Origin: Candidatus Saccharimonadota bacterium
GTDB taxonomy: Bacteria > Patescibacteriota > Saccharimonadia > Saccharimonadales > Saccharimonadaceae
DNA: 32,000 bases
Direction: 5' to 3'
Assembly: GCA_023898645.1 (NCBI GenBank)
Contig: CP060232.1
Span: 990,001 to 1,022,000, forward strand
Position numbers and translations under genes: made by a program
The notes under the pieces: generated by a model
Databases searched by the model: none
What the model saw: the letters and a program-made list of their open reading frames with translations, nothing else
What the model was told of the DNA's origin: nothing
Part shown: positions 476 through 32,000 of the stretch, piece after piece
Numbering within the stretch: position 1 is the stretch's first letter
How the letters are laid out: every line of letters begins with the position of its first letter

Positions 476-2104
476 TTATTTTGATTTCGATTTTACAGTA
501 GCTTTTTCGGTTACATCGAATTTATCAAAATATCGACCTAACAAAAGGGCTGTTTGTGATGTAAAAGCCGAAGCTGAACTATATACAATAGCCGTAACAG
601 GCATCAGGAACCACTGAAGAATCATCCAAACATTACGATGACGTTTGTATCTTAATGGGCGCGGTGGAAGCATCTTAAAGGCGAAAAACACTGTTATAAA
701 CAAGCCAACAAGAGCAATCTGTTGGATATGACTGATAACTTCTGGAAGTTGATGAGCGGCGATACTATGAGCAGCCTGACCGTTAACAAAAAGTGGCACC
801 CACCCACCTATTGCAATCAGTATCGCGATGCTTGCAAGAGTAACGTGACCATCAATCAAACGAATAAGCCGAGCTAAACTTGGTCCAAGAGGCACTTCTC
901 TACGATCAGTAAAAATTCTTGTTGCAACATATGCTATATCGGAAGCTCCGTATGCCCAACGACGAAGTTGTATAAACTGAGCCTTAAGTGTTCGTAGATA
1001 AGTTGAAGATAAAACAGCATCTTGATATATGGGTACAAATATAGATACAACGCCGTAATTACCTTTAAAATGAAAGTAACTCCTCCAATACTGATGGCCG
1101 TCTTCTACTATTGTTCGAGTGCTCCAAAAATTCATTTCAACAAGCGCATCCATTGGCTGAGAATGTGATGCAAAATTACGCAAAGTATGCGGTCTCATTG
1201 AGCTAATAATATTCCAAAATGAGTTTCCAGTAGCGACCACGCGCATCGGCGCTGGAGCATCCCAGATATTGTTAATGAAAAGGCATATTGGTTGATAGGA
1301 AAGGTTCTTGCGATCAAGATGAACGACATATTCATACGTAAGATAGTCAAAATAAGTAGGGTGTGTTCGATTGTCTGCGTCAAGAGTAGTAACAATTACA
1401 TCACTATATTTAATTTTACGCTTATCTAGCCAGTCCTTTAGAAAGAATCCTGCATACGTTATATTGCCGCCCTTACCCCGAACTTCATTAGGCAAATCAT
1501 TCGGATGTTCAACAAGTAGAAAATCCTTAAACTTACCCCGAAATTCCCTTTCAAGTGCATGAACTGTATCTTTAATCGCAGCGCCACCTCTCGCTTCATA
1601 TGCGACGACGACAATCATATGTTTTTTATCATAAGTAGAGTCAACAAGCGACTGAATTGTTGGCTGCAAGATATCATAGGACTCATTGTATGTTGCAATT
1701 ATAACAGCGTTATATATTTGAGACGGCTTCGGGTAGTTGTTCGGATGGGCGATAATTTCCTTTAGGTTCCCCGCATGATTATCGTGTGCAAAATCATTAT
1801 CCGGTTTCAGTGCGTCATCGATATATTTCGATGGATTTTCTAATTGTTTTAGCCTATCATGCCAATCTACCTTCTGAGCCTTCTCAAGTTGATTACGCCC
1901 AGTCGTTGTATGATATGCAATACCGACAGCCTTTATAAGGGTGGTTATAATAATCGCCAACAAATAGGCGGCTGCAATTAACGGATTAAGCAAAGAAAGT
2001 GCAACGAGCAATATAATGGATCCGTAACTTAAAAACGCAGGCAACATTTCATAGAAACGATATGCTGGAGTTCGCTTGCCTATTGGAATCTCTAGATCAG
2101 GCAT
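476..2104 (-). CDS. Processive family-2 glycosyltransferase (cellulose/chitin-synthase-like), polytopic membrane protein
   Basis: Readable motifs: TLDADN (DxD), VEDGHQYW (ED), QLRRWAYG (QxxRW). TM helices at both ends. Preferred start is ATG 2104 (MPDLEIP...), 1 nt after the stop of the upstream ORF. The track's 2203 start would overlap that gene by about 100 nt. Confidence 0.85.
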   Translation of the reverse strand: MPDLEIPIGKRTPAYRFYEMLPAFLSYGSIILLVALSLLNPLIAAAYLLAIIITTLIKAVGIAYHTTTGRNQLEKAQKVDWHDRLKQLENPSKYIDDALKPDNDFAHDNHAGNLKEIIAHPNNYPKPSQIYNAVIIATYNESYDILQPTIQSLVDSTYDKKHMIVVVAYEARGGAAIKDTVHALEREFRGKFKDFLLVEHPNDLPNEVRGKGGNITYAGFFLKDWLDKRKIKYSDVIVTTLDADNRTHPTYFDYLTYEYVVHLDRKNLSYQPICLFINNIWDAPAPMRVVATGNSFWNIISSMRPHTLRNFASHSQPMDALVEMNFWSTRTIVEDGHQYWRSYFHFKGNYGVVSIFVPIYQDAVLSSTYLRTLKAQFIQLRRWAYGASDIAYVATRIFTDRREVPLGPSLARLIRLIDGHVTLASIAILIAIGGWVPLFVNGQAAHSIAAHQLPEVISHIQQIALVGLFITVFFAFKMLPPRPLRYKRHRNVWMILQWFLMPVTAIVYSSASAFTSQTALLLGRYFDKFDVTEKATVKSKSK

Positions 2105-2105
2105 A

Positions 2106-2489
2106 TCACGACAGCGAAGCAATTTTAAGAATTTGATAAAAAATTGTAGCCGCAACAAGAATAAGAATAATACTGAACCATATAAATGCCGCTGTAAAGT
2201 CACGCCCCTTTTTTTGAAGCAATTTATAACTGGTCATACTGTGCACAACCGCTAAAACAATTACGTAAGCAACAAAAGTTAGAAGATAATACCATTTATC
2301 ACGATAAAAATTCGTAGGGCCAAAACCTGTGTAATGAACGACAACCTGAAGCTCGCTTGGGTGAATTTGGGAAAGTAAAAAGACGATGACACCAGCACAT
2401 ACTAGAAGAAATACGAACAGAAGGACGGCTATATACCGATCTTTAACGACTTCATTCACTGAACCTATGATTGTTTGCTTAATATTCAT
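2106..2489 (-). CDS. Small polytopic membrane protein (127 aa, about 4 TM), partner of the GT-2 enzyme
   Basis: Hydrophobic helices are readable. The stop abuts the GT-2 start (TGA-T-ATG). The ATG lies only 8 nt after the 3' CCA of tRNA-Gly. No domain recognised. Confidence 0.7.
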   Translation of the reverse strand: MNIKQTIIGSVNEVVKDRYIAVLLFVFLLVCAGVIVFLLSQIHPSELQVVVHYTGFGPTNFYRDKWYYLLTFVAYVIVLAVVHSMTSYKLLQKKGRDFTAAFIWFSIILILVAATIFYQILKIASLS

Positions 2490-2497
2490 AATCTAAT

Positions 2498-2572
2498 TGG
2501 TGCGGGTACAGAGAATTGAACTCTGCTCTTAACCTTGGGAAGGTTACATATTAGCCACTATACGATACCCGC
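2498..2572 (-). tRNA. tRNA-Gly (anticodon CCC), CCA encoded
   Basis: Reverse complement GCGGGTA...TAACC-TTCCCAA-GGTTA...CAGAG-TTCAATT-CTCTG-TACCCGC-A-CCA. 75 nt. Confidence 0.9.
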
Positions 2573-2583
2573 GTTTATCGTTA

Positions 2584-2659
2584 TGGAGCCGCTGTCCGGA
2601 TTTGAACCGGAGACCTACGCTTTACGAAAGCGCCGCTCTACCAACTGAGCTACAGCGGC
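2584..2659 (-). tRNA. tRNA-Thr (anticodon CGT), CCA encoded
   Basis: Reverse complement GCCGCTG-TA-GCTC-AGTTGGTA-GAGC-G-GCGCT-TTCGTAA-AGCGT-AGGTC-TCCGG-TTCAAAT-CCGGA-CAGCGGC-T-CCA. 76 nt. Confidence 0.9.
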
Positions 2660-2681
2660 GAAACCGCGGTCCGTGCGTCTG

Positions 2682-2690
2682 ATTATACCA
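2682..2690 (-). promoter_or_regulatory. Extended -10 promoter (TGGTATAAT) for the tRNA-Thr/tRNA-Gly/membrane protein/GT-2 transcription unit
   Basis: Plus strand ATTATACCA is TGGTATAAT on the minus strand, 22 nt upstream of the tRNA-Thr 5' end. Confidence 0.5.
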
Positions 2691-2723
2691 TTTGACGTAA
2701 AAGAAATAAACGAATCTACACCG

Positions 2724-2752
2724 TTGCGCCAGAGGCGAAAAGCTGGTATCAT
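2724..2752 (+). promoter_or_regulatory. Promoter for tRNA-Asp (TTGCGC-17-TGG-TATCAT)
   Basis: TTGCGC 2724-2729, 17-nt spacer ending in TGG, TATCAT 2747-2752. The tRNA starts 22 nt downstream. Divergent from the minus-strand tRNA promoter. Confidence 0.45.
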
Positions 2753-2773
2753 ACTTGAAGCGCCAAGCTATGA

Positions 2774-2851
2774 GGGCTCGTAGTGAAGTTGGCCTATCAC
2801 GCCTCCCTGTCACGGAGGAGATCGCCGGTTCGAATCCGGTCGGGCCCGCCA
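2774..2851 (+). tRNA. tRNA-Asp (anticodon GTC), CCA encoded
   Basis: GGGCTCG-TA-GTGA-AGTTGGCCTA-TCAC-G-CCTCC-CTGTCAC-GGAGG-AGATC-GCCGG-TTCGAAT-CCGGT-CGGGCCC-G-CCA. 78 nt. Confidence 0.9.
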
Positions 2852-2858
2852 AAAATGT

Positions 2859-2886
2859 ATCACCCAAACAGGGTGATTTTTGTTTA
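2859..2886 (+). terminator. Intrinsic terminator after tRNA-Asp
   Basis: Stem ATCACCC/GGGTGAT, loop AAACA, then TTTTTGTTT. Confidence 0.65.
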
Positions 2887-2907
2887 CATAAAACAGGGGT
2901 GTTTTGA

Positions 2908-2936
2908 TTGACCGCTATCCGTTAGCGTGATAGGAT
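2908..2936 (+). promoter_or_regulatory. Promoter of the surface-protein gene pair (TTGACC-17-TGA-TAGGAT)
   Basis: TTGACC 2908-2913, 17-nt spacer ending in TGA, TAGGAT 2931-2936. An A-rich leader of about 30 nt runs to ATG 2974, with no obvious SD. Confidence 0.45.
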
Positions 2937-2973
2937 ATAACAGTAGTAAAACAACTTCGCAAAAATAAAAAAA

Positions 2974-5172
2974 ATGAGAAAAATATTCGGACACAAGTTT
3001 ATAATCGGGCTAACGCTTATTACTGCTCTATTTTCACTTGTTCCCACCTCTGCTTACGCAGCTAGCAATTCCGTAGCCCTGACGCCCGCATCAGGAACCA
3101 ACCAGCCTGGCACGAATTTCCCGGTCAGCATTGACGGTCATGTCGGGAGTTCATGGTTTGGAACCCACAGTGTCACCGGAACGATTACGTTTCCAGCGAA
3201 TTTAATAAAAGTTGTCAGTATCAACACATCCGGATCAACATTCTTCGCATCGTCAAAAATTACATTCAGCAACACCAATGGTACGATAACGTTTAATCAA
3301 AGTAGCGGCCTCTTTTCTGCTGCTAATAACCAAGATGTTCACTTATTTATAGTAAACTTTCAATTTCTCGCCAATGGAACTGCGAATGTTAATTTCAGCA
3401 ACGTAAAATACGACACAGGTACAGCCGCTACAAGTGGCGGTATCTACACCATTAGCACACCATCACCATCACCATCACCCTCACCTTCACCATCTCCGTC
3501 TCCAAGCCCAACGCCCACTCCTACGCCATCTACGAAACCAAGCCCGACCCCTACGCCCAATGCGAAATCGACCCCGAGTCCAGCGCCATCTACGAAACCA
3601 AGCCCGACCCCTACGCCCAATGCGAAATCGACCCCGAGTCCTACCCTTAAGGATAATGTAAAGCAAACACTATCATCCCCCACTCCAATAGCTAATAACC
3701 CTGTAAACCAGGATCTCGAGAGCACTCTCACACCCGTGTCGAGTAGTGAAGGAGGTCTTAAAATAAAAAACGTTAAGGTCACGGCTACTCGACAGCAAAA
3801 CAGTATCACTTGGTCTCTAAGCAGTATCGACGCAAAACCCATATTTCTCTACGGGACATCAAAAGATTCTCAAAACAACACCGGAACAATCGTTCAACAA
3901 AATGACGGCAGCTATCTTGTCAACCTTACAAACCTTAAACCCGGAACGCTGTATTACTTCACTATCAATGCCGCATCTAAAGATAACTTACTCGGAGCAA
4001 ACTATAGAGGCGCCCTAACTACCCGAGGCTACCCCGTTCAATTAACAATAAAACAAAATAACTTACTCATACCTGGCGCAAAAGTAAAAATTGGCGAAAG
4101 AGAGTTTGTAACAAATGAGTACGCAATCATATCAACAGAACTAAGCGATGGGGATTTCACGGCCATCATTACAGAACCCAATTCAACCGATAGTCATAGT
4201 GTTGAATTTACCGTAAAAAAACTTGTATACAACGGAGGCCAAAATCCAAGTCAACAGAAAATTGCACTTAATTTATCGACTCTTGGAAAATCAGCCGCGC
4301 CGAACACCTCGCTTTTGCCTATGGCCGTCGGAGGTGGCGTATCAGTAACTGGCATGACGGGCGGTATAGTCGGTCTCGCTATCTATCGAAAACGAAAAGC
4401 CAGTGAACAAGCAGGAAACCAAGTGGACAGCGACCTTCTTATTTCGAACTACGGTGAAAATGTAAGTCAACACCGTGATAATACCCCTGCTCCAAATTTA
4501 GCAATGATACCTGATATCAAATCACAATCTGGAATAACCCAAGTCAATCAGCCAAACTCCGAAAATCTACCCGCTGAACAAATAATTTATTCAGCTCCAT
4601 CACCTAATGTCGACTCGGAGCCTAACTCCTTTAACTCAGAATCCCTGCCCCTACCCCCGTCGCCCAGTGTGACTACGGTCACGACCAATCAAAATGACTC
4701 TACCGGAGCTGTCATGAATAGTGACGTCTCTACGAATACCCGGTATGATTCTGAAGCCGAACAAATCTCTGAAGAAATAATAAAAGTGGAATCTTCCGAG
4801 CAGACAGTTGACGATTCACCGAGTGCTATTTACGATGCAGAGACAGGACAACTTGACATAATCCATCATCATAACTCCGAGAATTCAACCGAAAGTGAAT
4901 CTCTCAACAGTTCCGGAACAGAAACATCACCTCCGAATGACTCAACAGAAACGACATTAAGTAATTCGTCTATAGACCAAGATGAATTAGACTTTCCCGA
5001 TAACGATCATAGCCAGACCGAATTATCTTTAGATGAGAATGATTATTTGGATCATACTGCACCGTCCGTCATGTCTAAAGCAGCAAACCCCGCACCAGCA
5101 TCAACATCAACATCAGCACCGACGACAACACAGCAACCCGTGATAACAGAACCTCATCAGGAGCTGATATGA
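2974..5172 (+). CDS. Type-I membrane surface protein with cohesin-like domain, (SP/TP)n linker, FN3-like and CarboxypepD_reg-like beta-sandwich domains, TM helix and long acidic disordered C-terminal tail
   Basis: Signal peptide (...[10 protein letters not shown]). Cohesin-like N-domain (VALTPASG...FPVSIDG...[14 protein letters not shown]...[10 protein letters not shown]). [12 protein letters not shown] linker. FN3-like segment (ITWSL...[13 protein letters not shown]). GYPVQLTIK...VKIGE module. TM helix GGIVGLAIY plus YRKRK. About 260 aa of S/N/D/E-rich tail. Domain names come from motif reading only. Confidence 0.85.
3459..3512. repeat. Hexanucleotide (TCACCA-like) microsatellite encoding (SP)n
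   Basis: CCATCACCATCACCATCACCCTCACCTTCACCATCTCCGTCTCC... translates to [16 protein letters not shown]. Confidence 0.8.
3524..3641. repeat. Perfect 58-nt direct repeat with 60-nt period (2 copies) inside the linker
   Basis: 3524-3581 is identical to 3584-3641. It encodes [19 protein letters not shown] twice, and only 2 nt between the copies differ. Confidence 0.95.
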
Positions 5173-8933: not shown

Positions 8934-9010
8934 TGGTACCCCGGGCAGGAGTCGAACCTGCAACCTTATCCTTAGGACGGATCTACTCTATCCAGTTGAG
9001 CTACCGGGGC
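8934..9010 (-). tRNA. tRNA-Arg (anticodon CCT), CCA encoded
   Basis: Reverse complement GCCCCGG-TA-GCTC-AACTGGATA-GAGT-A-GATCC-GTCCTAA-GGATA-AGGTT-GCAGG-TTCGACT-CCTGC-CCGGGGT-A-CCA. One G:A mismatch at the top of the anticodon stem. Confidence 0.8.
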
Positions 9011-21357: not shown

Positions 21358-22082
21358 TAGTTAGTCCCCTTCTGATCAGCTGCGCGATCGCTAAACAAGC
21401 TTTGTGGCAATCCTAAGTAGGAATCGGTTGCATTTTGACGACCAGGTCCAACAATGATTGCATCACTTGAGCTTCTCGCAAAAAACGCAGGGTCGTAAGT
21501 AAATGACATAGTGAAGCGAAGAACTTTATTTCCAGTTGCATCTTCTCCGTAACTCAACTCAGACGTCGAGACATTGTCCGTAAGCGGAACAGTTTGAGCC
21601 GTATCGCCATCCTTGTAACTCAATGACGTACCAAGAATTGTCTTTTTTAAGATATCTGCGGCAACATATCCATTCGCCGCCTGACCCTCTAGGTGAATGG
21701 TTCCGCTGTCAGAATCAACACGAGCAAGTGAAAAGGTGACTTGGTTTGGCGCTTGCGGATTGATTTTTGCCAACAACTCAAAGAACCGTGAGTAGATATT
21801 CTTCTCATTATGATAATTGGTTAGCTGTGTGAGTTGGTGCTGGATAGTCAACATGTGAGCTAGATCAGGTACGCTTGATAGTGATTTGCTTTTTTGCTTG
21901 ATTTGATCGTCGTCGATAGATGAACGTACAGTTTGTACTCCGACTAAATAAACCGTCATGAGTACCACAATACCTATAAACACAAGGCTTACAAAAACAG
22001 CACCCGTGATGACAAGACTTCTTACCCGTTTTGCGCGTATGAGTTCTTGTTTAACGTCTGGTACAAGATTAATTTCTGTCAT
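21357..22082 (-). CDS. pilN: PilN-like pilus alignment protein
   Basis: N-terminal EINLVPD motif (PilN INLLP-type), single TM, extracytoplasmic domain. Overlaps the pilM stop. Confidence 0.6.
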   Translation of the reverse strand: MTEINLVPDVKQELIRAKRVRSLVITGAVFVSLVFIGIVVLMTVYLVGVQTVRSSIDDDQIKQKSKSLSSVPDLAHMLTIQHQLTQLTNYHNEKNIYSRFFELLAKINPQAPNQVTFSLARVDSDSGTIHLEGQAANGYVAADILKKTILGTSLSYKDGDTAQTVPLTDNVSTSELSYGEDATGNKVLRFTMSFTYDPAFFARSSSDAIIVGPGRQNATDSYLGLPQSLFSDRAADQKGTN

Positions 22083-23125
22083 GCGATGTTCCTTCTCTTA
22101 GCCAGTCCTACGGCCACAGAAAATTCCGAGGCAATCGCAGCAAAATTCTGATCATTCGAAGGTGCAGACACACCCTGCCATGGGTTAGCAACAGAACATT
22201 GAATGCCTATCTTGGTTGTCATATACTGATCTAGCTGCGGAATCACACCCGCAAAACCAGCTAATAGTACGTTGCTTACCACCACTGCAGGATACCTTGT
22301 TTGAAAAAACTTAATGGATTTTAGTAGCTCCGACACAAGACCTTCTAGCGTACCCTCTAGGGCTCGCACAACCTGCCCCTCTAACTTGTCAGGAGCTAGG
22401 CCGAATTTAAGTATAAATTGTCGAGCCTGGTCCTCTTGGATTCCTAGATTTTGAACAGCAGCATGGACTAACGTCTCTAGACCGCTTGGAATTGATCTGA
22501 CTAACCGTGGCGCATCTCCGTAGACAATACCAACGTTAATGTTCTGTTCTGCTACTTCAACAATCACCTGAGCCTCATGGATACCGGGTGCAGCAAGGGC
22601 ACGGATGGCAGCAAGTGGCTCTGGCTCTGCAGCAATAACATCAAACCCGAGGCTCTCGACAAGCTCGAGTCGCTCCTCAGCATAAGAAATTGGTGTGCTT
22701 GCAAGTAATACTTCCTGTTTTGTGGGGTCATGTAGCGATTGACCCAACACTGACCAGTCAACCTTTGCATCATCTAATGACATCGGTATGTATTGATCAA
22801 GTTGATACTTAATAGTACTTTTCAACTCAGCCTCAGATGTAGTTGGTATGTCGATTACCGTAACAAACGTCTTGCCGGCAGATAAGCCGATTGCAACGTT
22901 TTTTGTCTTGATACCACTCTGCCCCACCACTGTCATAATAATCTCGCCAAGTCGATGCTTTGCCTCTGCAGAGTCAGATGTCGCAGTCTTGACATCGATC
23001 GGTGCATAACCATAGTGACGTAACGACCATTTATCTGGACCTGCGGGCGTAAGTTGCACGGCCCTAACTGAATTAGTTCCTATATCGAGACCAAAGAAGT
23101 CGCCCACGCCTTTTATCATAGCCAT
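22079..23125 (-). CDS. pilM: PilM, actin-like ATPase of the T4P alignment complex
   Basis: FFGLDIGTNSVRAV (actin-fold phosphate-1). About 350 aa. Candidate starts are ATG 23125 (9 nt after TATAAT) or ATG 23119 (10 nt after AGAGG). The track's GTG 23143 is less likely. Confidence 0.85.
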   Translation of the reverse strand: MAMIKGVGDFFGLDIGTNSVRAVQLTPAGPDKWSLRHYGYAPIDVKTATSDSAEAKHRLGEIIMTVVGQSGIKTKNVAIGLSAGKTFVTVIDIPTTSEAELKSTIKYQLDQYIPMSLDDAKVDWSVLGQSLHDPTKQEVLLASTPISYAEERLELVESLGFDVIAAEPEPLAAIRALAAPGIHEAQVIVEVAEQNINVGIVYGDAPRLVRSIPSGLETLVHAAVQNLGIQEDQARQFILKFGLAPDKLEGQVVRALEGTLEGLVSELLKSIKFFQTRYPAVVVSNVLLAGFAGVIPQLDQYMTTKIGIQCSVANPWQGVSAPSNDQNFAAIASEFSVAVGLAKRRNIA

Positions 23126-23179
23126 AATGCCTCTATTATACACAAGCGCTTTCGCACATAAAAGCCCATTTTTATTAAT

Positions 23180-25342
23180 CTAGTAATACGGGGGTAAATC
23201 CGTAGAATATGTTGTTTGTAATTTACCGACACTCTCACCGCCACCTTTGATCTGCGACCACAAACTAGTCGTACCTGGCAAGTTAATGATCTCCGCAGGA
23301 TCACCCGCACCACTATCCGCACCATACGTACGCAACAGATATAAATGACGTGCCATAACCGGACCATTAATCAATAGCTTGATGTCGCAAACTTTGGTCG
23401 ACAAATGAATATTGACATCATCTCCGCAAGTAGAAATGTTACCCCCTGCACCACTAGCAATTAGCCAGGCATCAATCTGTTTCACTGACTTATCGATGTA
23501 AATGTTATTCGCGATAATCACTAGCTGTGGAATCTCGCTAATATCCTTATAGGGGTCAACACCCTTGCCGTTATCATATTTGATGTTACCAGTAATCGAC
23601 ACATTCGCATTTGGCGCCCAGACGATAATCATCTTTCCTTTACCTATAGGATCTTTAGCTTCTACTTTTAACGAATTTGATTGCGTTACGTGCAGTCCAT
23701 TTCCTAGGTCTGAAATATTTAACTTCCTACTAGAATCAATAATGGGTATCTGACTACCGGCTGTTAGTGCGGGGACTGCATCTGGGATTGTGCCGACACC
23801 AGTACTACTCGAGAAGTTACCGCAAGAACTCGTATCGTTAGCAAAGGTAAGAATATTAAGTCTATAATCGCAAGTGCCCGATGGCACCCCAGAAAATCCT
23901 CCCGCATACCCCGAAAGAGAGGCGACTCCTACGACTGGTCCGGGAGCGATTATGCCGTACTCAACCCAGCTGCCATACGTCTTTCTGCTTCCACCAACCA
24001 TCTTTGTCGATGTACTTGCATATACCTTTGCAGAGGCACTTCCAGGCCCACCGGCGAAACCTCTCCCGACCCTAAGGTCGCCACCTTGAATCTGTACGAA
24101 CGCATGCTCCGCCACAAATATACATGCCGACTGACTATAACGATCTGTTGGCGAATCATTTTGAGTTGGTTGGTGGATTTTTAGAAAATAACATATTTTT
24201 GTGCCAGGACCCCAAGAAGGATCAAGTGCAGGCCTAGATGCTGCGGTGTTAATAACGTTATATCCTGGATTGAATGTCCTATTATTAGAATCGAGATTGT
24301 CATTGCATGATTGAGTTAATACTTGCCTGGTCAGCTGCGCACAAGTTCCCCCGCTAAGTCTAGAAACATCTTGCCCAGGGCTCACGACAACTTGAGTAAT
24401 TGACCATTCAGTTGATTGACTAGTAGTGTCGATAGATGTGTTGTTTACACTAAAGACTAATGGCTGAACGCTCGCGCCACTTCCCGGGAAAACAGCTTGA
24501 CTAGCGGGAGTCACTGACGGTATCAAATTGTACACTTTAGGCGCTGGTGTCGGCGGCGGCGTCACAGGGGGTTTAATTTCATCACACGCATTACCAATAT
24601 AACTACGGAGCTGCTCAGCTAGGTTGGAATAGTTAGAATCAATGTGAAAGGTGTGCGTCGAATTATTAGAGCTACCATTAATCACACTGTTAAGTGCACC
24701 CTGATCCGCATTACCGATAATACCTCCTAGTATCAATTTAGGGTTTCCGATATCCGGACCACCTGCTTTTAATTTCCTTACAGCATTTTGAGCCAACCTG
24801 ACCGCGTTACCAACGCCAGATGGCTGGTTCGGCAGGCCGTCAGTCATAAAAACAATAATGTCTGTCTTTTTCATGATGCCTGCAATGGCAGGATTGAGAT
24901 TTCCATGATCATAACCAAAACCTTGCTCATAGTCGGTACCACCATAGGAAACTATGGAATTTAAATTCGCCATAAAGTTATAGTAGCCCGGGTCAAGATT
25001 GCCATATGAACTTACGAAGTCGCTATAAGGTGCGTCGTAATTAGAATCCGCAACGCCATACGCAAACGACCAAAATGCCAAAAATATGTTCGGGTCGTAC
25101 AACCCGGTATTAGTATTGTTATTGTTATTTCCCGGGGGTTGAAACAACAATTTAATCTGTGCTTGCAAGGTTCGCTCATTAGTTGGACCAACTGAACCCG
25201 AGCGATCAAGTACCATAGCAACGTGACAAAGTGGAGTCGACTGAGCATAACTATAGGGAGTCACGATTGCAGCCACGAGAGCAGTAATCCCTATGCCAAA
25301 CATAATGACCCATGGCAATATCCTATTCATCCATATTGTCAT
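23180..25342 (-). CDS. Large secreted/anchored von Willebrand factor A-domain protein (720 aa), candidate pilus-associated adhesin
   Basis: N-terminal hydrophobic signal/anchor. MIDAS DRSGS in VAMVLDRSGSVG, plus a downstream FMTDGLPN motif. About 450 aa of C-terminal region without recognisable motifs. TAATG overlap with the upstream TPR gene. Confidence 0.8.
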   Translation of the reverse strand: MTIWMNRILPWVIMFGIGITALVAAIVTPYSYAQSTPLCHVAMVLDRSGSVGPTNERTLQAQIKLLFQPPGNNNNNTNTGLYDPNIFLAFWSFAYGVADSNYDAPYSDFVSSYGNLDPGYYNFMANLNSIVSYGGTDYEQGFGYDHGNLNPAIAGIMKKTDIIVFMTDGLPNQPSGVGNAVRLAQNAVRKLKAGGPDIGNPKLILGGIIGNADQGALNSVINGSSNNSTHTFHIDSNYSNLAEQLRSYIGNACDEIKPPVTPPPTPAPKVYNLIPSVTPASQAVFPGSGASVQPLVFSVNNTSIDTTSQSTEWSITQVVVSPGQDVSRLSGGTCAQLTRQVLTQSCNDNLDSNNRTFNPGYNVINTAASRPALDPSWGPGTKICYFLKIHQPTQNDSPTDRYSQSACIFVAEHAFVQIQGGDLRVGRGFAGGPGSASAKVYASTSTKMVGGSRKTYGSWVEYGIIAPGPVVGVASLSGYAGGFSGVPSGTCDYRLNILTFANDTSSCGNFSSSTGVGTIPDAVPALTAGSQIPIIDSSRKLNISDLGNGLHVTQSNSLKVEAKDPIGKGKMIIVWAPNANVSITGNIKYDNGKGVDPYKDISEIPQLVIIANNIYIDKSVKQIDAWLIASGAGGNISTCGDDVNIHLSTKVCDIKLLINGPVMARHLYLLRTYGADSGAGDPAEIINLPGTTSLWSQIKGGGESVGKLQTTYSTDLPPYY

Positions 25343-25929: not shown

Positions 25930-26039
25930 CTACCATCCATTAACGCTTATGCTGGGTCAAGTATAAACGACGGTGAATGTTTGGACAAGCAAACAAATAA
26001 TTACTCGTCTCTTAGTGGCAATATACCGATGAGTGCCAT

Positions 26040-26059
26040 CCACATCTACATAGATGTGG
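26040..26059. promoter_or_regulatory. 20-bp palindrome CCACATCTA-CA-TAGATGTGG between divergent promoters
   Basis: Perfect 9-bp arms around a central CA. Lies between a possible minus-strand TATATT box (26020-26025) and the plus-strand promoter at 26087. Confidence 0.5.
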
Positions 26060-26086
26060 GTATGTTTCTATCAGCCTCGCATTATA

Positions 26087-26116
26087 TTGGAAAAACTTCA
26101 CCACCTCTGTTAGAAT
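26087..26116 (+). promoter_or_regulatory. Promoter TTGGAA-18-(TGT)TAGAAT
   Basis: TTGGAA 26087-26092, spacer ending in TGT, TAGAAT 26111-26116. ATG of a 25-codon ORF lies 9 nt downstream. Confidence 0.45.
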
Positions 26117-26125
26117 AGATTGGTT

Positions 26126-26203
26126 ATGAGTTTATCAATAGGCACAGCAAGGACACAAACCAACCTATCGCCGCTACTCTTCTCCCCTTCAAGCTGTCAG
26201 TGA
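26126..26203 (+). CDS. Possible leaderless 25-aa peptide (MSLSIGTARTQTNLSPLLFSPSSCQ), or the 5' end of a non-coding transcript
   Basis: ATG 26126 to TGA 26201-26203, positioned like the other -10-proximal start codons in the window. There is no other support. Confidence 0.2.
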   Translation: MSLSIGTARTQTNLSPLLFSPSSCQ

Positions 26204-26562
26204 AGTTGCCAGTGCCGGACCAAGGCGGGCGTGGCTACTCAAAGGAATTCCTACAACAACTTACTTAAAGTGAATTCGACCCACCCCCCGTTCGAGTAGG
26301 GTGCGTTGGTTCCATGTTCAATAACAATATATAGCGAAGCGTCGGAACCTGTGGTTTCACCAGATCTTGTTATACGACACTAGCAGGCTTACTGCGTTGC
26401 AGTCGTCAATTCCAATACATTTGGCTGAATACGTAATATATACAGAATAAGATTGCTCGGTAATGCGTCAATCAGTACGTGTAGGCCGCGTGGGCAGGTT
26501 GCTTGGGTAAGCAGTTGATGTTAGAATTTACAGCATTAGGGTGGGAGACGGGAAGTATAGAA

Positions 26563-26898
26563 ATGAAGGCTCGTTGGACCACCCCGCAACTTATTTGGGC
26601 TATTTTGTTAGTCGTTGCCGGAATGATAGCGGCTTTGAGCAGTGTGCCTAAACTATTGGATGCACTACCACAATCATCTCAGCTCTGTACGACTGCCGGC
26701 CTACTTGGTTTCATAGGCTCTATTTTACAACCGAGATATTACCTTACAATTTTGTTTCTATTGATTACCGTCACCCTGATACACAGGGCCACGAAACTTC
26801 TCTCATCAAAGAGTGCCGCGTTCGCTCCCTATCCTGCGCTTGTAGTCGCCCTGGCTGTAACGGTGCTTCTTTCCATTTCTGCTTTTAGGTGTGGTTGA
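26563..26898 (+). CDS. Small 4-TM membrane protein, upstream partner of the KAP-type NTPase
   Basis: Four hydrophobic helices (LIWAILLVVAGMIAAL, TTAGLLGFIGSIL, YYLTILFLLITVTLI, LVVALAVTVLLSISAF). ATG 26563 is preceded by GGGAGACGGGAAG. The track's TTG 26503 is an alternative start. The stop TGA abuts the ATG of the next gene. Confidence 0.65.
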   Translation: MKARWTTPQLIWAILLVVAGMIAALSSVPKLLDALPQSSQLCTTAGLLGFIGSILQPRYYLTILFLLITVTLIHRATKLLSSKSAAFAPYPALVVALAVTVLLSISAFRCG

Positions 26899-28356
26899 AT
26901 GCACAACCTTTTTCATTTTCCTGAGCAGAGTAAGAAATCTCTGAGCACACTATCTTATGACAATCTTGGCGAAGCAATTTACATTGAAGACCTCAAACAC
27001 GCTCAGAAATCATTATCTGACCTGATAAATGGTTCGCAGAAAGCCAAACTGCTGCAAAGGGGCTACGTGAGTATCGTTAGCGGACCTTATGGTGTCGGCA
27101 AGACGGTATCCGCATGGGCGATAATTAACGAACTGCGCAAGGAAATACCAGAGATATTTTTTATAGAGAGGTCGCTATTGCCTTTCGGTAACACATCCGA
27201 AGCGATTTCGGCATTCCTGAACAATTTTGCATATCGATTGTGGCAAGAAGGGGTTGTGGATATTCGAGAAGATATAGCGCAATTTATATTTGAAGTGACC
27301 CAGGATGCAGTGCCGCTTAAACTCGAAGCAAGTATCGGACCTATCAGGGTTGGAAAAGACCTTGTTCCAGGTGCTAGAAGTGATGATGTGTACGAAGTAG
27401 TCAGTGGGAAATTCTCAGGTATAAAAAAATGTCCCGCTATCATCATACTACTTGACGATGTTGATAGGCTTCGCACAAGCGAAATCATCGAAACAATGAG
27501 ACTTGTTGAAAAGTTACGGTTGCTCCCGCGTACAGTCGTTTTGTTACCCGTGTATAAGGATATTTTGACAAACGCTTTTCAAAATGAACTGCACGTACCT
27601 GGAGATACTGCTCCAACCTTCCTTAGAAAATTGTCGGACTACGAAATAAGCTTACGTGCCGATTACGGCGGACTGAAGAAGATTTTTCTTAGTAAATTTG
27701 AAGGAAAATACGGAAGCATAGACGGTATCAGTATCCCGGAGCTTTGCTGGTACAGCCTAGTGCATAACATTGTTATTCGAGAAGCGATAGCGAAAATCGA
27801 TGGCGCACCAGACAAAGGTGTAATCAACCATGCCTTTGAATTTTCCAACTCACCTTATCTGTCTCACTTGCAAAAAGCCTTCATGCTACAAAATCACTAT
27901 CAGGCAGGCTTCTCCAAAGAAGAGCATCCGATGCCTGCTCATTATTTTGAAAGCGGTCAAGACTATTTTTCACCACTCGGAAAGCAATACTCATACATTG
28001 CAGACAGGACTAATGACAGCGGCATGTATACACAGCTGGGTGAACTTAGAAACATAGATAATGTCGCGAAACTAATTACGTTGGATTCGAATATAGTAGA
28101 TGCCTTGAGGTCAAACTATAAGACTGAGTTCAAAAAGGACGTAGAAGACAAGTCGTCTAGGCCCGCATTAGTTGCATTTTTTATACCGAAATTGCAAATA
28201 TCCGAAAACGAACCTCTACTGACTAATAACTATAGAGCGCGAGACGTCGAGGACATGGCGCTACGCATTCTGGGTGACCGGAGATTTGATAAAAAAAGCA
28301 GTGACGCCTTATTGTTTTATAGAATTGCAAGTGAACGGTTCGATGAATATCGATAA
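26899..28356 (+). CDS. KAP-family-like P-loop NTPase (485 aa) lacking the usual intradomain TM insertion
   Basis: Walker A SGPYGVGKT. Walker B with KAP-type continuation AIIILLDDVDRLRTSEIIETMRLVEKLRLLPRTVVLLPVYKDIL...TFLRKLSDYEISL. No hydrophobic segment between the two motifs. About 250 aa of C-terminal region of unknown function. Confidence 0.7.
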   Translation: MHNLFHFPEQSKKSLSTLSYDNLGEAIYIEDLKHAQKSLSDLINGSQKAKLLQRGYVSIVSGPYGVGKTVSAWAIINELRKEIPEIFFIERSLLPFGNTSEAISAFLNNFAYRLWQEGVVDIREDIAQFIFEVTQDAVPLKLEASIGPIRVGKDLVPGARSDDVYEVVSGKFSGIKKCPAIIILLDDVDRLRTSEIIETMRLVEKLRLLPRTVVLLPVYKDILTNAFQNELHVPGDTAPTFLRKLSDYEISLRADYGGLKKIFLSKFEGKYGSIDGISIPELCWYSLVHNIVIREAIAKIDGAPDKGVINHAFEFSNSPYLSHLQKAFMLQNHYQAGFSKEEHPMPAHYFESGQDYFSPLGKQYSYIADRTNDSGMYTQLGELRNIDNVAKLITLDSNIVDALRSNYKTEFKKDVEDKSSRPALVAFFIPKLQISENEPLLTNNYRARDVEDMALRILGDRRFDKKSSDALLFYRIASERFDEYR

Positions 28357-28405
28357 TTACAAAAAATTACACTCCCATAATCATCAGAGTTATAATTGAT
28401 TCGCA

Positions 28406-28780
28406 ATGAAAGACATAAAACAGCATAGTTCACTAACACCTAAACAAAGCGCATATATACAGGCATATGCCAGCCCTGACAGCGCCAGCTTTGGTAACTC
28501 GTACCAAAGCGCCCTGTTGGCGGGCTATAGTTTCCAAACTGCCCGCAACATGACACACCTCCGACCTGAGTGGTTATCGGAAAATATCGGACAGATGGCC
28601 GTCATTAAACCTCAAGAAATTATGCAGGAGCTAACAACGGTCATACATAACGAAAATGAACCAACAATTATCCGACTAAAGGCCATGGAGCTATCTATGA
28701 AGGCGTATAGTATGTTGCAGCAGCGCACCGCTACCGAACCAACAGCCGTTTCAATATCAATTGATTTATCGCAATCTTAG
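28406..28780 (+). CDS. Phage terminase small subunit-like protein (Terminase_2-type HTH)
   Basis: LTPKQSAYIQAY...GNSYQSALLAGYSFQTA... and C-terminal IRLKAMELSMKAYSML match the TerS pattern (LTxKQxxF...GNxxxAAxxAGYSxxxA...RLKAxELLGK). TATAAT box 9 nt upstream of the ATG, no SD. Confidence 0.6.
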   Translation: MKDIKQHSSLTPKQSAYIQAYASPDSASFGNSYQSALLAGYSFQTARNMTHLRPEWLSENIGQMAVIKPQEIMQELTTVIHNENEPTIIRLKAMELSMKAYSMLQQRTATEPTAVSISIDLSQS

Positions 28781-28792
28781 TTGCCGCACCAA

Positions 28793-28821
28793 GGAACACA
28801 CTCTATGAACCGTGTTTTTTT
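28793..28821 (+). terminator. Possible terminator after the terS-like gene
   Basis: GGAACAC/GTGTTTT stem (two G:U pairs), 12-nt loop, then a T-run. It overlaps the 3' end of the convergent gene. Confidence 0.3.
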
Positions 28822-29369
28822 GCGGCTCTTCGCTTCTTCACAGTCCTTTTGTGCATCGGGAATCTTTTTTGCACGTCCTTCTCTATAGCCTTAGCTTCCG
28901 CCTCGATATCAAAGTCGAAGGCGGCCATTACGCCGACGAATGCGTTATAAGTCTCACGTGCCTCCATGCTACTATTCTCAATACCATCTGAATCCAGGTA
29001 GCCAACCTCAATCGCATTAATAACGCTCCATAAAGACCCTATGCATTCATGCCAGGCAGTAACAGCAGCTTGCTTAGCCTCTATCGAATGCTGGTCAGAA
29101 GACAGTACGGTTTTTACATGTCGCCGACAAATCACGTTCAATTCATATTGCACCCGTTTTGAATTCAATATCTCACTATGTAACTTTTCGTCAAACAGAT
29201 CGTCGTATGGCTTATTAATATCTTTTTGCAAGAGTTCCTGGACCCTTCTATACCTATCCTCGCCATACCTATCAAGCGACTCCTGTAATATCGACAGACG
29301 CCTCCCCGGACTGTTCGCGTACACGACCCAAGCGATAACGGCTACTATAACGATGACTATCCAAAACAT
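28803..29369 (-). CDS. Hypothetical N-terminally anchored helical protein (188 aa)
   Basis: N-terminal TM helix (FWIVIVIVAVIAWVVYA), helical body, Lys/Arg-rich C-terminus. TGTTAATAT box 7 nt upstream of the ATG. No domain recognised. Confidence 0.6.
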   Translation of the reverse strand: MFWIVIVIVAVIAWVVYANSPGRRLSILQESLDRYGEDRYRRVQELLQKDINKPYDDLFDEKLHSEILNSKRVQYELNVICRRHVKTVLSSDQHSIEAKQAAVTAWHECIGSLWSVINAIEVGYLDSDGIENSSMEARETYNAFVGVMAAFDFDIEAEAKAIEKDVQKRFPMHKRTVKKRRAAKKHGS

Positions 29370-29391
29370 ACGTTCTATATTAACACCTTAT

Positions 29392-29835
29392 TTATTCGTC
29401 ATAGGTCGCAACAACAAGAAACACAAAGCCAGCCACAATATCAATAATCATCCATGCCTCCTTTGGAAATACAAAAAGAGCAATCGGATTGAATAGTAGA
29501 GCTATTAAGGGAAACATCGCCGCTCTTACATATCTACGCCGACTTAAGTACAGCCATATCGCACCCAATGACGCTGCGCATACAACCCACCGCAGAACAA
29601 TAAAATACGCGTACGGGGCGGGTATTACGGATGATACAAACAATAATATTGCTACAGCACCAAGCAAAAATTCCTGCCAATGGTTTGTGATTCCGTAAAA
29701 CAGATTCTCAAACTTTCGAAAAAAATTACCCTCGTCAATTACTTGCACTATTATGCCAGCCGTTAGAAAAACTATCATGAGCGCCCCGAACCCTATACAA
29801 TACCACATCCATACTTGCCCAATAAATTGTTCCAT
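29392..29835 (-). CDS. Hypothetical polytopic membrane protein (about 147 aa, 4-5 TM)
   Basis: Hydrophobic helices throughout. ATG 29835 is preferred over the track's GTG 29907 (AAGGG 7 nt upstream). Confidence 0.6.
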   Translation of the reverse strand: MEQFIGQVWMWYCIGFGALMIVFLTAGIIVQVIDEGNFFRKFENLFYGITNHWQEFLLGAVAILLFVSSVIPAPYAYFIVLRWVVCAASLGAIWLYLSRRRYVRAAMFPLIALLFNPIALFVFPKEAWMIIDIVAGFVFLVVATYDE

Positions 29836-30030
29836 ATGCGACCCTTTCCGTTTGATACATGGCAAACCAAAAAGCCCGCCATGAGCGGTGGCCTTTCGGT
29901 CACCCACTACTGTTTCCAGCAGCGATAACGGAAAGATGTACTCACGACGAGCTGTTTCTTTCCGTTGATTGTTTAGCCATACCTGCGCATTTGCGTGGCT
30001 CTAGGCCAGTGGACTTGCCACTTGTTCATA

Positions 30031-30039
30031 ATTATACCA
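30031..30039 (-). promoter_or_regulatory. Extended -10 promoter (TGGTATAAT) for the minus-strand membrane-gene pair, giving a leader of about 190 nt
   Basis: Plus strand ATTATACCA is TGGTATAAT on the minus strand, in the divergent intergenic region 29836-30091. Confidence 0.4.
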
Positions 30040-30091
30040 GCCTGATAGATATTACCGCATAAGCAATATGAAATGGTAGCATTGATTCAGA

Positions 30092-30679
30092 ATGGTTGCT
30101 GTTAATGACTTTGGCCCGATAATACCGTCGCAACTTCGCACAAGGGGCGACTGGCATAGATTTTTCGTATTAAACGATGAGGGTTTTATAAATGACGTCT
30201 ATTCAAAGGTACGAAGAGTGAATGGTAAAAAAAATCTTAGCGACGAGGACGCGACAACAATAGGTAGCGCGTACGCCATAAACGTACTTGATATACATAA
30301 TTATGTCGCGCGGGGTAGTCGCGGACAGTGGGTACCGCCATCCGACTACTTCACTGTACAGCAGTCGCCAGATTCACCCGATAAATGGGTGGTGGTGTTC
30401 GATAAATCAGCGATGCAGCAGGATTTTCTTAACGCATACGAACAGTTTGACTGGTTCCGCTCTAAACAACACCCCTTGGACTTCATGCGACGCCGAGCAC
30501 CAGAACAGCCCGCGTTAATATACTCTATTTTTACCCAACGCAGGCAGGGAAAACATTGGGGCGAAATATTCAAAATGTATCAAAACGGTACACTTCCGGG
30601 ATACGAAGGATCGGCATCACAATACACGCATCAAAAGTCACTGGAAGCCCATTACAACAGGTACCGACCAACACCCTAG
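30092..30679 (+). CDS. Hypothetical protein (195 aa)
   Basis: Long ORF with TGGTAGCAT box 9 nt upstream of the ATG. No recognisable motif. Confidence 0.6.
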   Translation: MVAVNDFGPIIPSQLRTRGDWHRFFVLNDEGFINDVYSKVRRVNGKKNLSDEDATTIGSAYAINVLDIHNYVARGSRGQWVPPSDYFTVQQSPDSPDKWVVVFDKSAMQQDFLNAYEQFDWFRSKQHPLDFMRRRAPEQPALIYSIFTQRRQGKHWGEIFKMYQNGTLPGYEGSASQYTHQKSLEAHYNRYRPTP

Positions 30680-30813
30680 AATCACTTAATCCGAGACAAA
30701 ATGTTAGCTGTTTTTAGCAACAGTTCCATGTGTAATAGCTACAGAACGGTATCGATAGCCCTCTGACCAATAACCGTTCTGTCAGGGGGCTTTCCATATG
30801 CAGGAGAAGTGTA

Positions 30814-31224
30814 ATGTATTCAATAGAAACGGTAGTGCGCTCAGAGCTAAGAGACGGAAAGGGCTACAGACTCAAAGTATCAATACTAGATTTGGGCCTC
30901 TATATCGATGGGTTTCGTGCGTTAAAATCCGAACGTAATCAAAATGGATGGTGGGTACAGCCACCGTCAAACCTGGTAAAGGGTGTCTGGGTAACGGCAT
31001 GCGAATTTGATAAAACCAAGGCCTTCTGGCTGAATATCGAGCAATCGTGTGTCGATGCCATCGCGACATATTTGTCGGAAGACCGACAACAAATCACGCA
31101 AAACTCTTCGCGTGACATATTGCCAGCCGACGACGAGATGGAGGATGTTCTGTCTAAGGGTTTCGAGTTCCCTCCAGGCTGGGATGAGAAGACACCTGAA
31201 CCACGCAAGGAATATCACCCATGA
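30814..31224 (+). CDS. Hypothetical protein (136 aa), with faint SpoVG-like pattern in the N-terminal 90 aa
   Basis: AGGAGA SD 7 nt upstream. The pattern YRLKVSILDLGLYIDGFRAL...NGWWVQPPS loosely resembles SpoVG (AxASITLDxxFVIHDIRV...NGLFVAMPS). This is a weak, by-eye match only. Confidence 0.55.
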   Translation: MYSIETVVRSELRDGKGYRLKVSILDLGLYIDGFRALKSERNQNGWWVQPPSNLVKGVWVTACEFDKTKAFWLNIEQSCVDAIATYLSEDRQQITQNSSRDILPADDEMEDVLSKGFEFPPGWDEKTPEPRKEYHP

Positions 31225-31259
31225 CGCCACATCGTATCACCATGTTCACTACGCCCATA

Positions 31260-31271
31260 TCTATATATAGA
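31260..31271. promoter_or_regulatory. 12-bp perfect AT-rich palindrome TCTATATATAGA, with ATCTATATA repeated 36 bp downstream
   Basis: Palindrome at 31260-31271. ATCTATATA occurs at 31259-31267 and again at 31295-31303. Confidence 0.4.
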
Positions 31272-31356
31272 GATACCTCTATAACGGTTATACGTATCTA
31301 TATAAAGATTCTAGTAATAGAGATGCTTACCAGTTGCCTGTGGGTAGAGGTCAACT

Positions 31357-31545
31357 GTGCAGAACCTGATTCATTACTGGACACCTGTATTGCTATTTAT
31401 GACGAGTATCACGATGATATTGCCTATTGAGGTCAAATACGAACAAGTGGAAACACCCGACCAAGATAGGATTGATACAGCGTTCAACTACCTCTTTGAG
31501 CTAGTCTTGAAGCAAAGAATGTCAACCGAAAACGATGGACATTAA
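31357..31545 (+). CDS. Hypothetical small protein (62 aa, GTG start)
   Basis: AGAGG lies 8 nt upstream of the GTG. Hydrophobic N-terminus. Competes with the overlapping ORF 31221-31430, so coding status is uncertain. Confidence 0.3.
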   Translation: MQNLIHYWTPVLLFMTSITMILPIEVKYEQVETPDQDRIDTAFNYLFELVLKQRMSTENDGH

Positions 31546-31553
31546 AGTTATAT

Positions 31554-31573
31554 TTACTTATAATTACTTATAA
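31554..31573. promoter_or_regulatory. Tandem 10-bp repeat TTACTTATAA x2 containing TATAAT, upstream of the excisionase-like gene
   Basis: 31554-31563 equals 31564-31573. TATAAT at 31559-31564. AAGGA SD follows before ATG 31583. Confidence 0.45.
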
Positions 31574-31582
31574 AGGATAGTT

Positions 31583-31768
31583 ATGGATACCGAATACCTC
31601 ACAGTCGAACAAGTCGCCAACCTGCTCCAGGTCCACTGGCAAAGTGTTTTGAACTACATCAAGCGTGGCGACTTGCCTGCTATGCGGCTAGGGCGAGGTT
31701 ATCGTATAGCTCGAAACGACTTGGACAAATTTATTGAACAGCGCACAACTAGGGGCAGCAGTCGATGA
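31583..31768 (+). CDS. xis: Excisionase-family / MerR-like helix-turn-helix DNA-binding protein (61 aa)
   Basis: LTVEQVANLLQVHWQSVLNYIKRGDLPAMRLGRGYRIARNDLDKFI is the typical HTH_17/excisionase pattern. ATGA overlap with the recombinase gene. Confidence 0.8.
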   Translation: MDTEYLTVEQVANLLQVHWQSVLNYIKRGDLPAMRLGRGYRIARNDLDKFIEQRTTRGSSR

Positions 31769-32000
31769 AAAGAGCCGCCGTATATGTACGCGTTAGCACC
31801 GCCAACCAGGAAGATGAAGAGACCATTGAGAATCAGCTCATGGAGCTCAAGGAGCGCATTAAGAACGATGGGGCCCTACTGCTGCCCGAATGCATCTATA
31901 GCGACAACGGATGGACCGGTACACTCTTAGAGCGACCAGACCTTGACCGGCTACGGTCAGACGCCAAGGAAGGCGCTTTTGACCTTCTCTACTACTATGA
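31765..32000 (+). CDS. Serine recombinase (resolvase/invertase N-terminal catalytic domain), 5' partial that continues beyond the window
   Basis: MKRAAVYVRVSTANQ... (catalytic Ser in the YxRVST motif), then ...SDNGWTGTLLERPDLDRLRSDAKEGAFDLLYYY. Whether it is a large serine integrase cannot be seen from 78 codons. Confidence 0.85.
   Translation, partial: MKRAAVYVRVSTANQEDEETIENQLMELKERIKNDGALLLPECIYSDNGWTGTLLERPDLDRLRSDAKEGAFDLLYYY

Follow-up and report, generated by a model that had tools for sequence, protein, structure and literature searches.

Within a 32,000-nucleotide stretch of a Candidatus Saccharimonadota genome (GenBank assembly GCA_023898645.1, contig CP060232.1, positions 990,001 to 1,022,000 of the forward strand; the whole stretch is called the window below), two abutting genes encode a small membrane protein with three predicted transmembrane (TM) helices and a soluble P-loop nucleoside triphosphatase (NTPase) of the KAP family. 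The two genes are a real, conserved two-gene cassette, specific to one subfamily of KAP NTPases. On balance, we lean towards a membrane-associated anti-phage or anti-mobile-element module as the function of this cassette, which would be co-transcribed, translationally coupled and carried on mobile islets of Patescibacteria. In window coordinates, the pair comprises:

26563-26898, plus strand: partner gene, small integral membrane protein of 111 amino acids (aa) with three predicted TM helices (hydropathy, conservation)
26896-26901, plus strand: gene junction TGA/ATG with zero spacer; the partner stop codon TGA (26896-26898) abuts the ATG at 26899
26899-28356, plus strand: gene for a KAP-family P-loop NTPase of 485 aa (Pfam PF07693, AlphaFold2 (AF2) model)

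The KAP family (PF07693) is named after Kidins220/ARMS and PifA. A preliminary description of the locus, made from the sequence alone, had proposed a KAP-type NTPase, and the Pfam search that it called for agrees: PF07693 (KAP_NTPase) matches the 485-aa protein with 49.5 bits (gathering cutoff 20, E = 4.6e-13), aligning aa 36-253 to profile positions 5-226 of 293, while generic AAA Pfam models gave far weaker scores, mostly under their own cutoffs. PF07693 was also present in all eight homologues from a word-indexed search. Four features of the protein are relevant here:

27082-27105, plus strand: Walker A, GPYGVGKT (aa 62-69), read in the translation
27247-27378, plus strand: soluble helix and conserved beta-hairpin (aa ~117-160), at the position of the TM insert of TM-bearing KAPs (alignment, predicted local distance difference test (pLDDT))
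27442-27468, plus strand: Walker B, IILLDDVDR (aa 182-190), read in the translation
27658-28353, plus strand: subfamily-specific C-terminal domain (aa 254-485), mostly helical (AF2 domain model)

The two Walker motifs, 120 aa apart, and the LRTSEIIETMRLVEKLRLLPRTVVLLPVYKDIL...FLRKL segment downstream of Walker B are found as previously read. Residues G62, G65, G67 and K68 of Walker A are invariant among nine homologues, D186, D187, D189 and R190 of Walker B are likewise invariant, and both motifs are unchanged in 29 subfamily members. No TM segment was detected in the NTPase by hydropathy, neither between Walker A and Walker B, where a hydrophobic stretch had already been noted to be missing, nor elsewhere; the top 19-residue Kyte-Doolittle mean is 1.34 and falls on the Walker B strand. 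The region of aa ~117-160, placed by alignment to the insert-bearing relative P0064 and to KAPs with long Walker A-to-B spacers, includes T134 and G147 among its conserved residues, and the pLDDT is low at aa 137-156. The hairpin may present a face that lies close to the membrane or to the partner.

An AF2 model of the NTPase, calculated with nine homologues, reached a pLDDT of 82 and a predicted template modelling score (pTM) of 0.70. Its best fold neighbour in the PDB is RdrA of the RADAR system (E = 4.9e-5), with a structural-alignment TM-score of only 0.35; Mpa, FtsH, ORC and NLR ATPases follow. The best viral neighbour of the model is named 'KAP family P-loop domain protein'. A search of the PDB sequences with the family profile gave 0 matches, and NCBIfam and PHROGs returned nothing significant for the NTPase. 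PifA is the sole PADLOC model that matches the window protein, with aa 181-251 against positions 184-252 of 720 (33.9 bits, E = 3.2e-9), which is not a full-length match. Based on the Pfam, PADLOC, fold and PDB-sequence results, the 485-aa protein belongs to the KAP NTPases rather than to the generic AAA+/ORC ATPases, and it is not an orthologue of PifA, RdrA or QatA.

The C-terminal domain sets the subfamily apart. Modelled alone, it is predicted with a pLDDT of 88.8 and a pTM of 0.88. No Pfam, NCBIfam or PHROG family matched it, and the best Foldseek hit in the PDB had an E of 1.4, with nothing at or below 0.001; likewise, the preliminary description could name no motif in the C-terminal ~250 aa. 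Full-length homologues are few: a word-indexed search of 5.8 billion proteins retrieved only eight, with identities of 30-38%. When 1.84 billion representatives were searched exhaustively with a profile, 3889 KAP matches were obtained, but only ~35 representative clusters, sharply set off from the rest, had E<1e-30, near-full-length matches among them. The C-terminal domain is conserved in these clusters only; in all other matches the alignment is limited to the NTPase domain. The subfamily records are labelled Candidatus Nomurabacteria (the label on the record of the window protein), Candidatus Saccharibacteria or Saccharimonas and the remaining contigs are metagenome assemblies; the gene pair is thus far named only from Patescibacteria records.

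The open reading frame (ORF) upstream of the NTPase is a real membrane-protein gene, as had been proposed. It had been described as essentially four TM helices, whereas hydropathy gives three, at aa 30-48, ~79-99 and 112-130 (numbering of a 131-aa version, see below). Three strong TM segments were also seen in the other full-length family members examined; in the 96-aa call of locus L001 (P0173), the N-terminus of which may be truncated, one segment lies above the threshold. A fourth helix, TTAGLLGFIGSIL (13 aa), was rejected, being too short and not hydrophobic in most homologues; it corresponds to 10-13 residues located just ahead of TM2, which opens with a conserved motif of the P-[HNK]-N-W type. 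With a leave-one-out hidden Markov model (HMM) the window partner scored 28.0 bits, compared with 12.1 for the best of 2000 composition-matched shuffles. Together with the 19 homologous clusters found by a search with the partner alignment, mostly of 110-112 aa, this rules out a chance ORF. None of the 19 clusters carries a Pfam domain. Conserved motifs are P-H-N-W, ILK[DE]RV and loop residues.

The charge distribution, read by the positive-inside rule, suggests that the N-terminus of the partner is inside and its C-terminus outside. The partner family falls into two clades. In the window clade (L001, L007, L008 and L011 listed) two cysteines co-occur, one in the first external loop and the other at the extreme C-terminus; a highly conserved 110-aa clade (MNNTKTLILK[DE]RV...) has neither. 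The positions of the cysteines in this single clade are weakly consistent with both sites being outside, where the pair may form an extracytoplasmic disulfide.

The start of the partner gene had been taken as TTG at 26503, giving 131 aa; a second alternative is ATG at 26518, implied by the 126-aa NCBI-sourced record P0164 (H6797_05365). Two elements lie close to these positions:

26519-26527, plus strand: TGtTAGAAT, resembling an extended -10 promoter (conservation)
26540-26548, plus strand: GGTGGGAGA, Shine-Dalgarno-like, 14 nt before the ATG at 26563 (conservation)

The order TGnTAnAAT, ~10 nt, GGTGGGAGA, ATG is common to six loci (the window, L002, L003, L023, L024 and L025), and in the five of these other than the window the GGTGGGAGA 9-mer is found 6-9 nt ahead of the partner ATG. 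Both alternative starts are located upstream of or within the promoter-like element. Because of this shared layout, and because 111 aa fits the length of the family, ATG 26563 is the more likely start. A generic sigma-70 scan did not call the putative promoter at 26519-26527, as it has no good -35, and the sigma-70 and terminator scans gave results within the expectation from shuffled sequence; the reassignment of the start is hence drawn from conservation.

The zero-spacer junction, which the preliminary description had located correctly at 26896-26901, makes translational coupling of the two genes probable. In 13 loci the partner and the NTPase are spaced by -4 to +8 nt, the partner stop codon being TGA, TAG or TAA. 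Read-through of the in-frame TGA into a fusion protein was also considered and rejected. Of the 13 loci, 7 have both ORFs in the same frame (the window and, of clade A, L002, L006, L021, L023, L024 and L025), and in the other 6 they are out of frame or overlap; as the frame relation varies in this way, read-through is not a conserved mode of expression.

In all 14 subfamily loci examined the partner gene is directly 5' of the NTPase gene on the same strand, at -4 to +8 nt, compared with 0 of 71 distant KAP loci that have an abutting upstream ORF matching the partner HMM. These control loci were taken from a metagenome scan with a 9-sequence NTPase alignment. Hence, the small membrane ORF does adjoin homologues of the NTPase in other genomes, the conservation on which the preliminary description had made its proposal depend. 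Approached from the NTPase side, the upstream ORF has 96-147 aa and is present in L001, L002, L003, L006, L007, L008, L011, L012 and L027, although in L002 it is absent from the called genes of the record. Approached from the partner side, the next gene is a KAP NTPase in all four loci, L021, L023, L024 and L025, the KAP ORF of L021 being broken by an assembly gap. The small upstream proteins can be aligned to each other. Over 12 loci, the pairwise identities of the partners correlate with those of the NTPases (r = 0.964; Mantel test, 0 of 5000 permutations), and the linkage is kept down to ~10-20% identity for the partner and ~30% for the NTPase. The linkage of the two genes is strict and ancient.

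KAP NTPases occur with and without TM helices. Two or four TM helices within the P-loop domain are found in animal and some bacterial members of the family, but not in all. Among the 150 best relatives of the window protein, at least 90 are TM-less, one to four TM helices precede the NTPase domain in ~20, and only 3 have them between Walker A and Walker B; the metagenome control KAPs show the same three architectures. The view that the family is defined by inserted TM helices, from which the preliminary description had started, is therefore too strong, PifA being reported as TM-less as well. P0030 and P0034, with fused N-terminal TM helices, match the profile over nearly their full length including the C-terminal domain, and the more distant N-terminal-TM relative P0054 also matches over nearly its whole length. 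In the 17.6 kb of the P0030 locus no partner gene or partner-like ORF was found; P0030 has its own N-terminal TM helix. This one data point fits an N-terminal TM module as the functional equivalent of the partner. The P0030 locus (L100 9889-17635) is dense in conflict genes and also contains those for a Zeta toxin, a DUF4411 and Peptidase_M78/HTH pair, an SNF2/PLD helicase and an Eco57I/MmeI-type methylase.

The genomic surroundings of the window pair are in line with its earlier placement at the edge of a phage-related island. On one side of the pair is a type IV pilus operon, on the other a short islet, with the following genes:

22079-23143: PilM, a gene of the type IV pilus operon; T2SSE and T2SSF lie further upstream (domain annotation)
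28406-28780, plus strand: gene resembling a terminase small subunit (TerS-like; phrog_51, E = 7.5e-8; weak Pfam Terminase_2)
29392-29907, minus strand: DUF6804 membrane-protein gene in the islet
31583-31768, plus strand: excisionase-like HTH_17 gene (phrog_66, E = 5.2e-10; PF12728 on the copy in L026)
31765-32000, plus strand: 5' end of a large serine integrase of 545 aa, which leaves the window (identical to the translation of the L026 copy)

The integrase copy in L026 contains Resolvase and Recombinase domains (phrog_95, E = 3.6e-95) and is followed by a YchF GTPase gene. With its TerS-like gene, excisionase-like helix-turn-helix (HTH) gene and large serine integrase, and without capsid or tail genes, the islet (~26000-32000 and beyond; L026 9620-16504) resembles a small phage satellite or an integrative element like the phage-inducible chromosomal islands (PICIs). 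Repeats around the islet that could represent attachment (att) sites were short and at chance level only, and none are expected for serine integrases. In L023 the same trio as in the window was observed, i.e. the KAP pair, a serine recombinase and a TerS-like gene.

The window, L012, L023 and L025 all have a large serine recombinase at most 5 kb from the pair. In L012 it is 2 kb away, while in L023 and L025 the pair is back-to-back with it, beside type ISP and MmeI-type restriction-modification (RM) enzymes. In L011 the pair is directly 3' of an Eco57I-type enzyme. Except for these recurring recombinases and RM enzymes, the flanking genes vary between loci; the pair thus moves as one. Judged by inspection of the loci, the distribution is mobile and defence-island-like, and the context favours a role in defence.

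The KAP family, its link to defence, TM-less KAPs and N-terminally anchored KAPs were already known. A two-gene KAP form with a dedicated three-helix partner was not found in PADLOC (2023) or in the literature searched. Beyond the family hallmarks that the window protein shares, namely Walker A GxxGxGK[ST], Walker B hhhhDDxDR and the conserved downstream helix, the window subfamily differs from other KAPs in its own C-terminal domain and in a membrane component on a separate upstream gene. The resemblance to PifA lies in a KAP NTPase without TM helices, the differences in the length of 485 aa and an unrelated C-terminal domain. PifA is not known to have a small membrane partner gene of its own. 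Acting in T7 exclusion on the F plasmid, it is reported to be TM-less, yet to cause membrane depolarisation and nucleotide leakage (PMC13001434).

A further comparison is with EF_KAP and its relatives, single-gene systems in which a KAP domain and an unknown C-terminal region protect against phages (PLoS Biol 2026, PMC13552941). Their defence needs both Walker B and the C-terminal region; EF_KAP is membrane-associated and reported to be non-abortive, and such KAPs are linked to serine recombinases (PMC13552941). Compared by description, the window pair likewise combines a KAP domain and a C-terminal region without a known fold, and is linked to serine recombinases. [quoted passage not shown] The KAPs with N-terminal TM helices (P0030, P0034, P0054-P0057, P0081, P0093) likewise have a membrane module N-terminal to the NTPase, but theirs is covalently attached and without detectable sequence similarity to the partner.

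Other defence NTPases were compared as well. RdrA, the closest solved fold, is a heptameric defence ATPase, but PADLOC gave no RdrA match, there was no sequence-level match in the PDB, and among the neighbours in the window and the loci examined no Pfam or PHROG family pointed to the deaminase RdrB. QatA, described as a KAP NTPase, has an unknown C-terminal domain and assembles into 7-8-mers (PMC13279940). No PADLOC Qat match was obtained for QatABCD, no QatBCD genes are nearby, and the neighbours in the window and the loci examined contain no QueC or TatD domains. Both RADAR and QatABCD differ from the pair in being cytosolic, without a membrane partner. Tmn and YobI, as membrane-anchored P-loop NTPases for defence that act at the membrane, resemble the arrangement proposed here, but they belong to another family and are single proteins with two TM helices in the P-loop domain after Walker A; PADLOC gave no match to them, and the window NTPase has no TM segment of this kind.

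From the precedents of KAP defence, PifA, QatA and RdrA, and from the anatomy of the pair, we infer a physical interaction of the two proteins, an oligomeric NTPase, sensing by the C-terminal domain, permeabilisation of the membrane and a function in defence. The soluble NTPase would probably assemble into a ring, like other KAP-type defence NTPases, and the three-helix partner would keep it at the inner face of the membrane. A cue of the invader would be sensed by the subfamily-specific C-terminal domain, and an NTP-dependent rearrangement would act through the partner, most likely rendering the membrane leaky or depolarised, so that infection stops. A more specific and clearly more tentative version, which we regard as possible, is a defence restricted to Patescibacteria (the candidate phyla radiation, CPR), carried as cargo of satellite-like serine-integrase islets, in which the KAP ring would gate the in-trans partner into a leak or pore once the new-fold C-terminal domain has sensed a phage.

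Several observations weigh against a defence module of this kind. PADLOC recognised no complete system, and its PifA match covers ~70 aa only. In searches by tblastn, no relative was found among GenBank phages and PLSDB plasmids; a scan of IMG/VR retrieved distant KAPs only. The pairs of L002, L003 and L006 are flanked by housekeeping genes. The partner exposes only ~15 aa of its N-terminus and a loop of ~12 aa to the cytoplasm, a small surface for docking. Finally, as EF_KAP is reported to be non-abortive (PMC13552941), the membrane-lesion step may be wrong.

The last point leads to an alternative in which the partner serves solely to tether the NTPase to the membrane, while the effector is the C-terminal domain, acting directly on the invader without membrane damage. 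We give this explanation, the main rival, a minority share of our confidence, well below that of the model above. The one to four fused N-terminal TM helices that relatives carry in place of the partner, unrelated to it in sequence, would suit a mere anchor, as would the lack of a partner gene near P0030. A large, conserved and confidently folded C-terminal domain is compatible with an effector, and in EF_KAP the C-terminal region is indeed required for the non-abortive defence (PMC13552941). However, the domain has no recognisable catalytic motif or fold, and the conserved motifs of the partner together with its tight co-divergence with the NTPase exceed the constraint expected for a plain anchor.

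A role outside defence, be it entry exclusion, the NTP-driven assembly of a membrane complex or a type IV pilus function, appears unlikely. The window pair does have the type IV pilus operon (PilM, T2SSE, T2SSF) on one side and the islet on the other, and in 2004 Aravind et al. reportedly proposed that KAP NTPases act in the NTP-dependent dynamics of membrane-associated complexes; in the same year they were reportedly also put forward as anti-invader proteins. But pilus genes are found beside the pair at no other locus examined, the pair has its own promoter-like element, and the flanks are otherwise unrelated. As recombinases and RM enzymes are the sole recurrent neighbours, such roles are less likely than defence.

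Very improbable, finally, is the origin suggested in the preliminary description, namely that the intradomain insert of two or four TM helices of a KAP was split off as a separate gene: a membrane protein is indeed encoded directly upstream of the NTPase, and the region aligned with the TM insert (aa ~117-160) is occupied by a conserved soluble hairpin in the window protein, but the relatives are mostly TM-less with an insert in only 3 of the 150 best, PifA is reported without TM helices (PMC13001434), the partner has three TM helices and its gene is 5' of the whole NTPase gene rather than at the insert position, a C-terminus that would be outside by the positive-inside rule is awkward for a former in-line fusion, and the partner HMM matches no KAP TM segment. 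Against 154 KAP relatives, ~20 of them with N-terminal TM helices and 3 with inserts, the best E of this HMM was 0.011, on a non-TM region; as TM sequences diverge fast, this null result is weak evidence. Since the N-terminally TM-anchored relatives are the nearest analogue, and P0030 among them lacks a partner, the pair appears to be better described as a KAP subfamily that has its membrane module in trans than as a broken insert-type KAP.

KAP NTPases have been validated as phage defences only in 2026 (PMC13552941), and the pair is plausibly a two-gene variant of the KAP NTPase candidate defence modules. As the membrane component and the NTPase are separate, their individual contributions can be tested genetically, and the C-terminal domain offers a confidently predicted fold without a solved relative. 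The immune repertoire of Patescibacteria is poorly known and their phages are mostly uncultured. If the proposal is true, the pair would be the first KAP system with a membrane module in trans, and among the few dedicated immune modules known from episymbionts with reduced genomes. Should the defence function be wrong, a tightly co-evolving couple of membrane protein and NTPase on integrase islets would still be left.

Some further features were observed in the window and at related loci. At the end of the pilus operon, a gene for a 720-aa protein (23180-25342, minus strand) was noted; the protein matches no Pfam family, carries a TM or signal segment at its N-terminus and may act as an adhesin of the pilus, a type of protein typical of episymbiotic Patescibacteria. 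The 195-aa gene that comes next shows a sub-threshold TPR_2 match (21.2 bits, cutoff 27). In L024, a 554-aa gene directly 3' of the pair (2100-3764) has a match to phrog_31300 (E = 2.7e-28) and a weak one to a reverse-transcriptase PHROG (E = 4.3e-4), and could be another defence-type gene. A LOOT RNA (RF03000; 29887-30007, minus strand; 58.5 bits, gathering cutoff 46.4) is located directly 5' of the DUF6804 gene of the islet. The first 9 kb of the window contain five tRNA genes (Val-GAC, Gly-CCC, Thr-CGT, Asp-GTC and Arg-CCT), at 75-151, 2498-2851 and 8934-9010.

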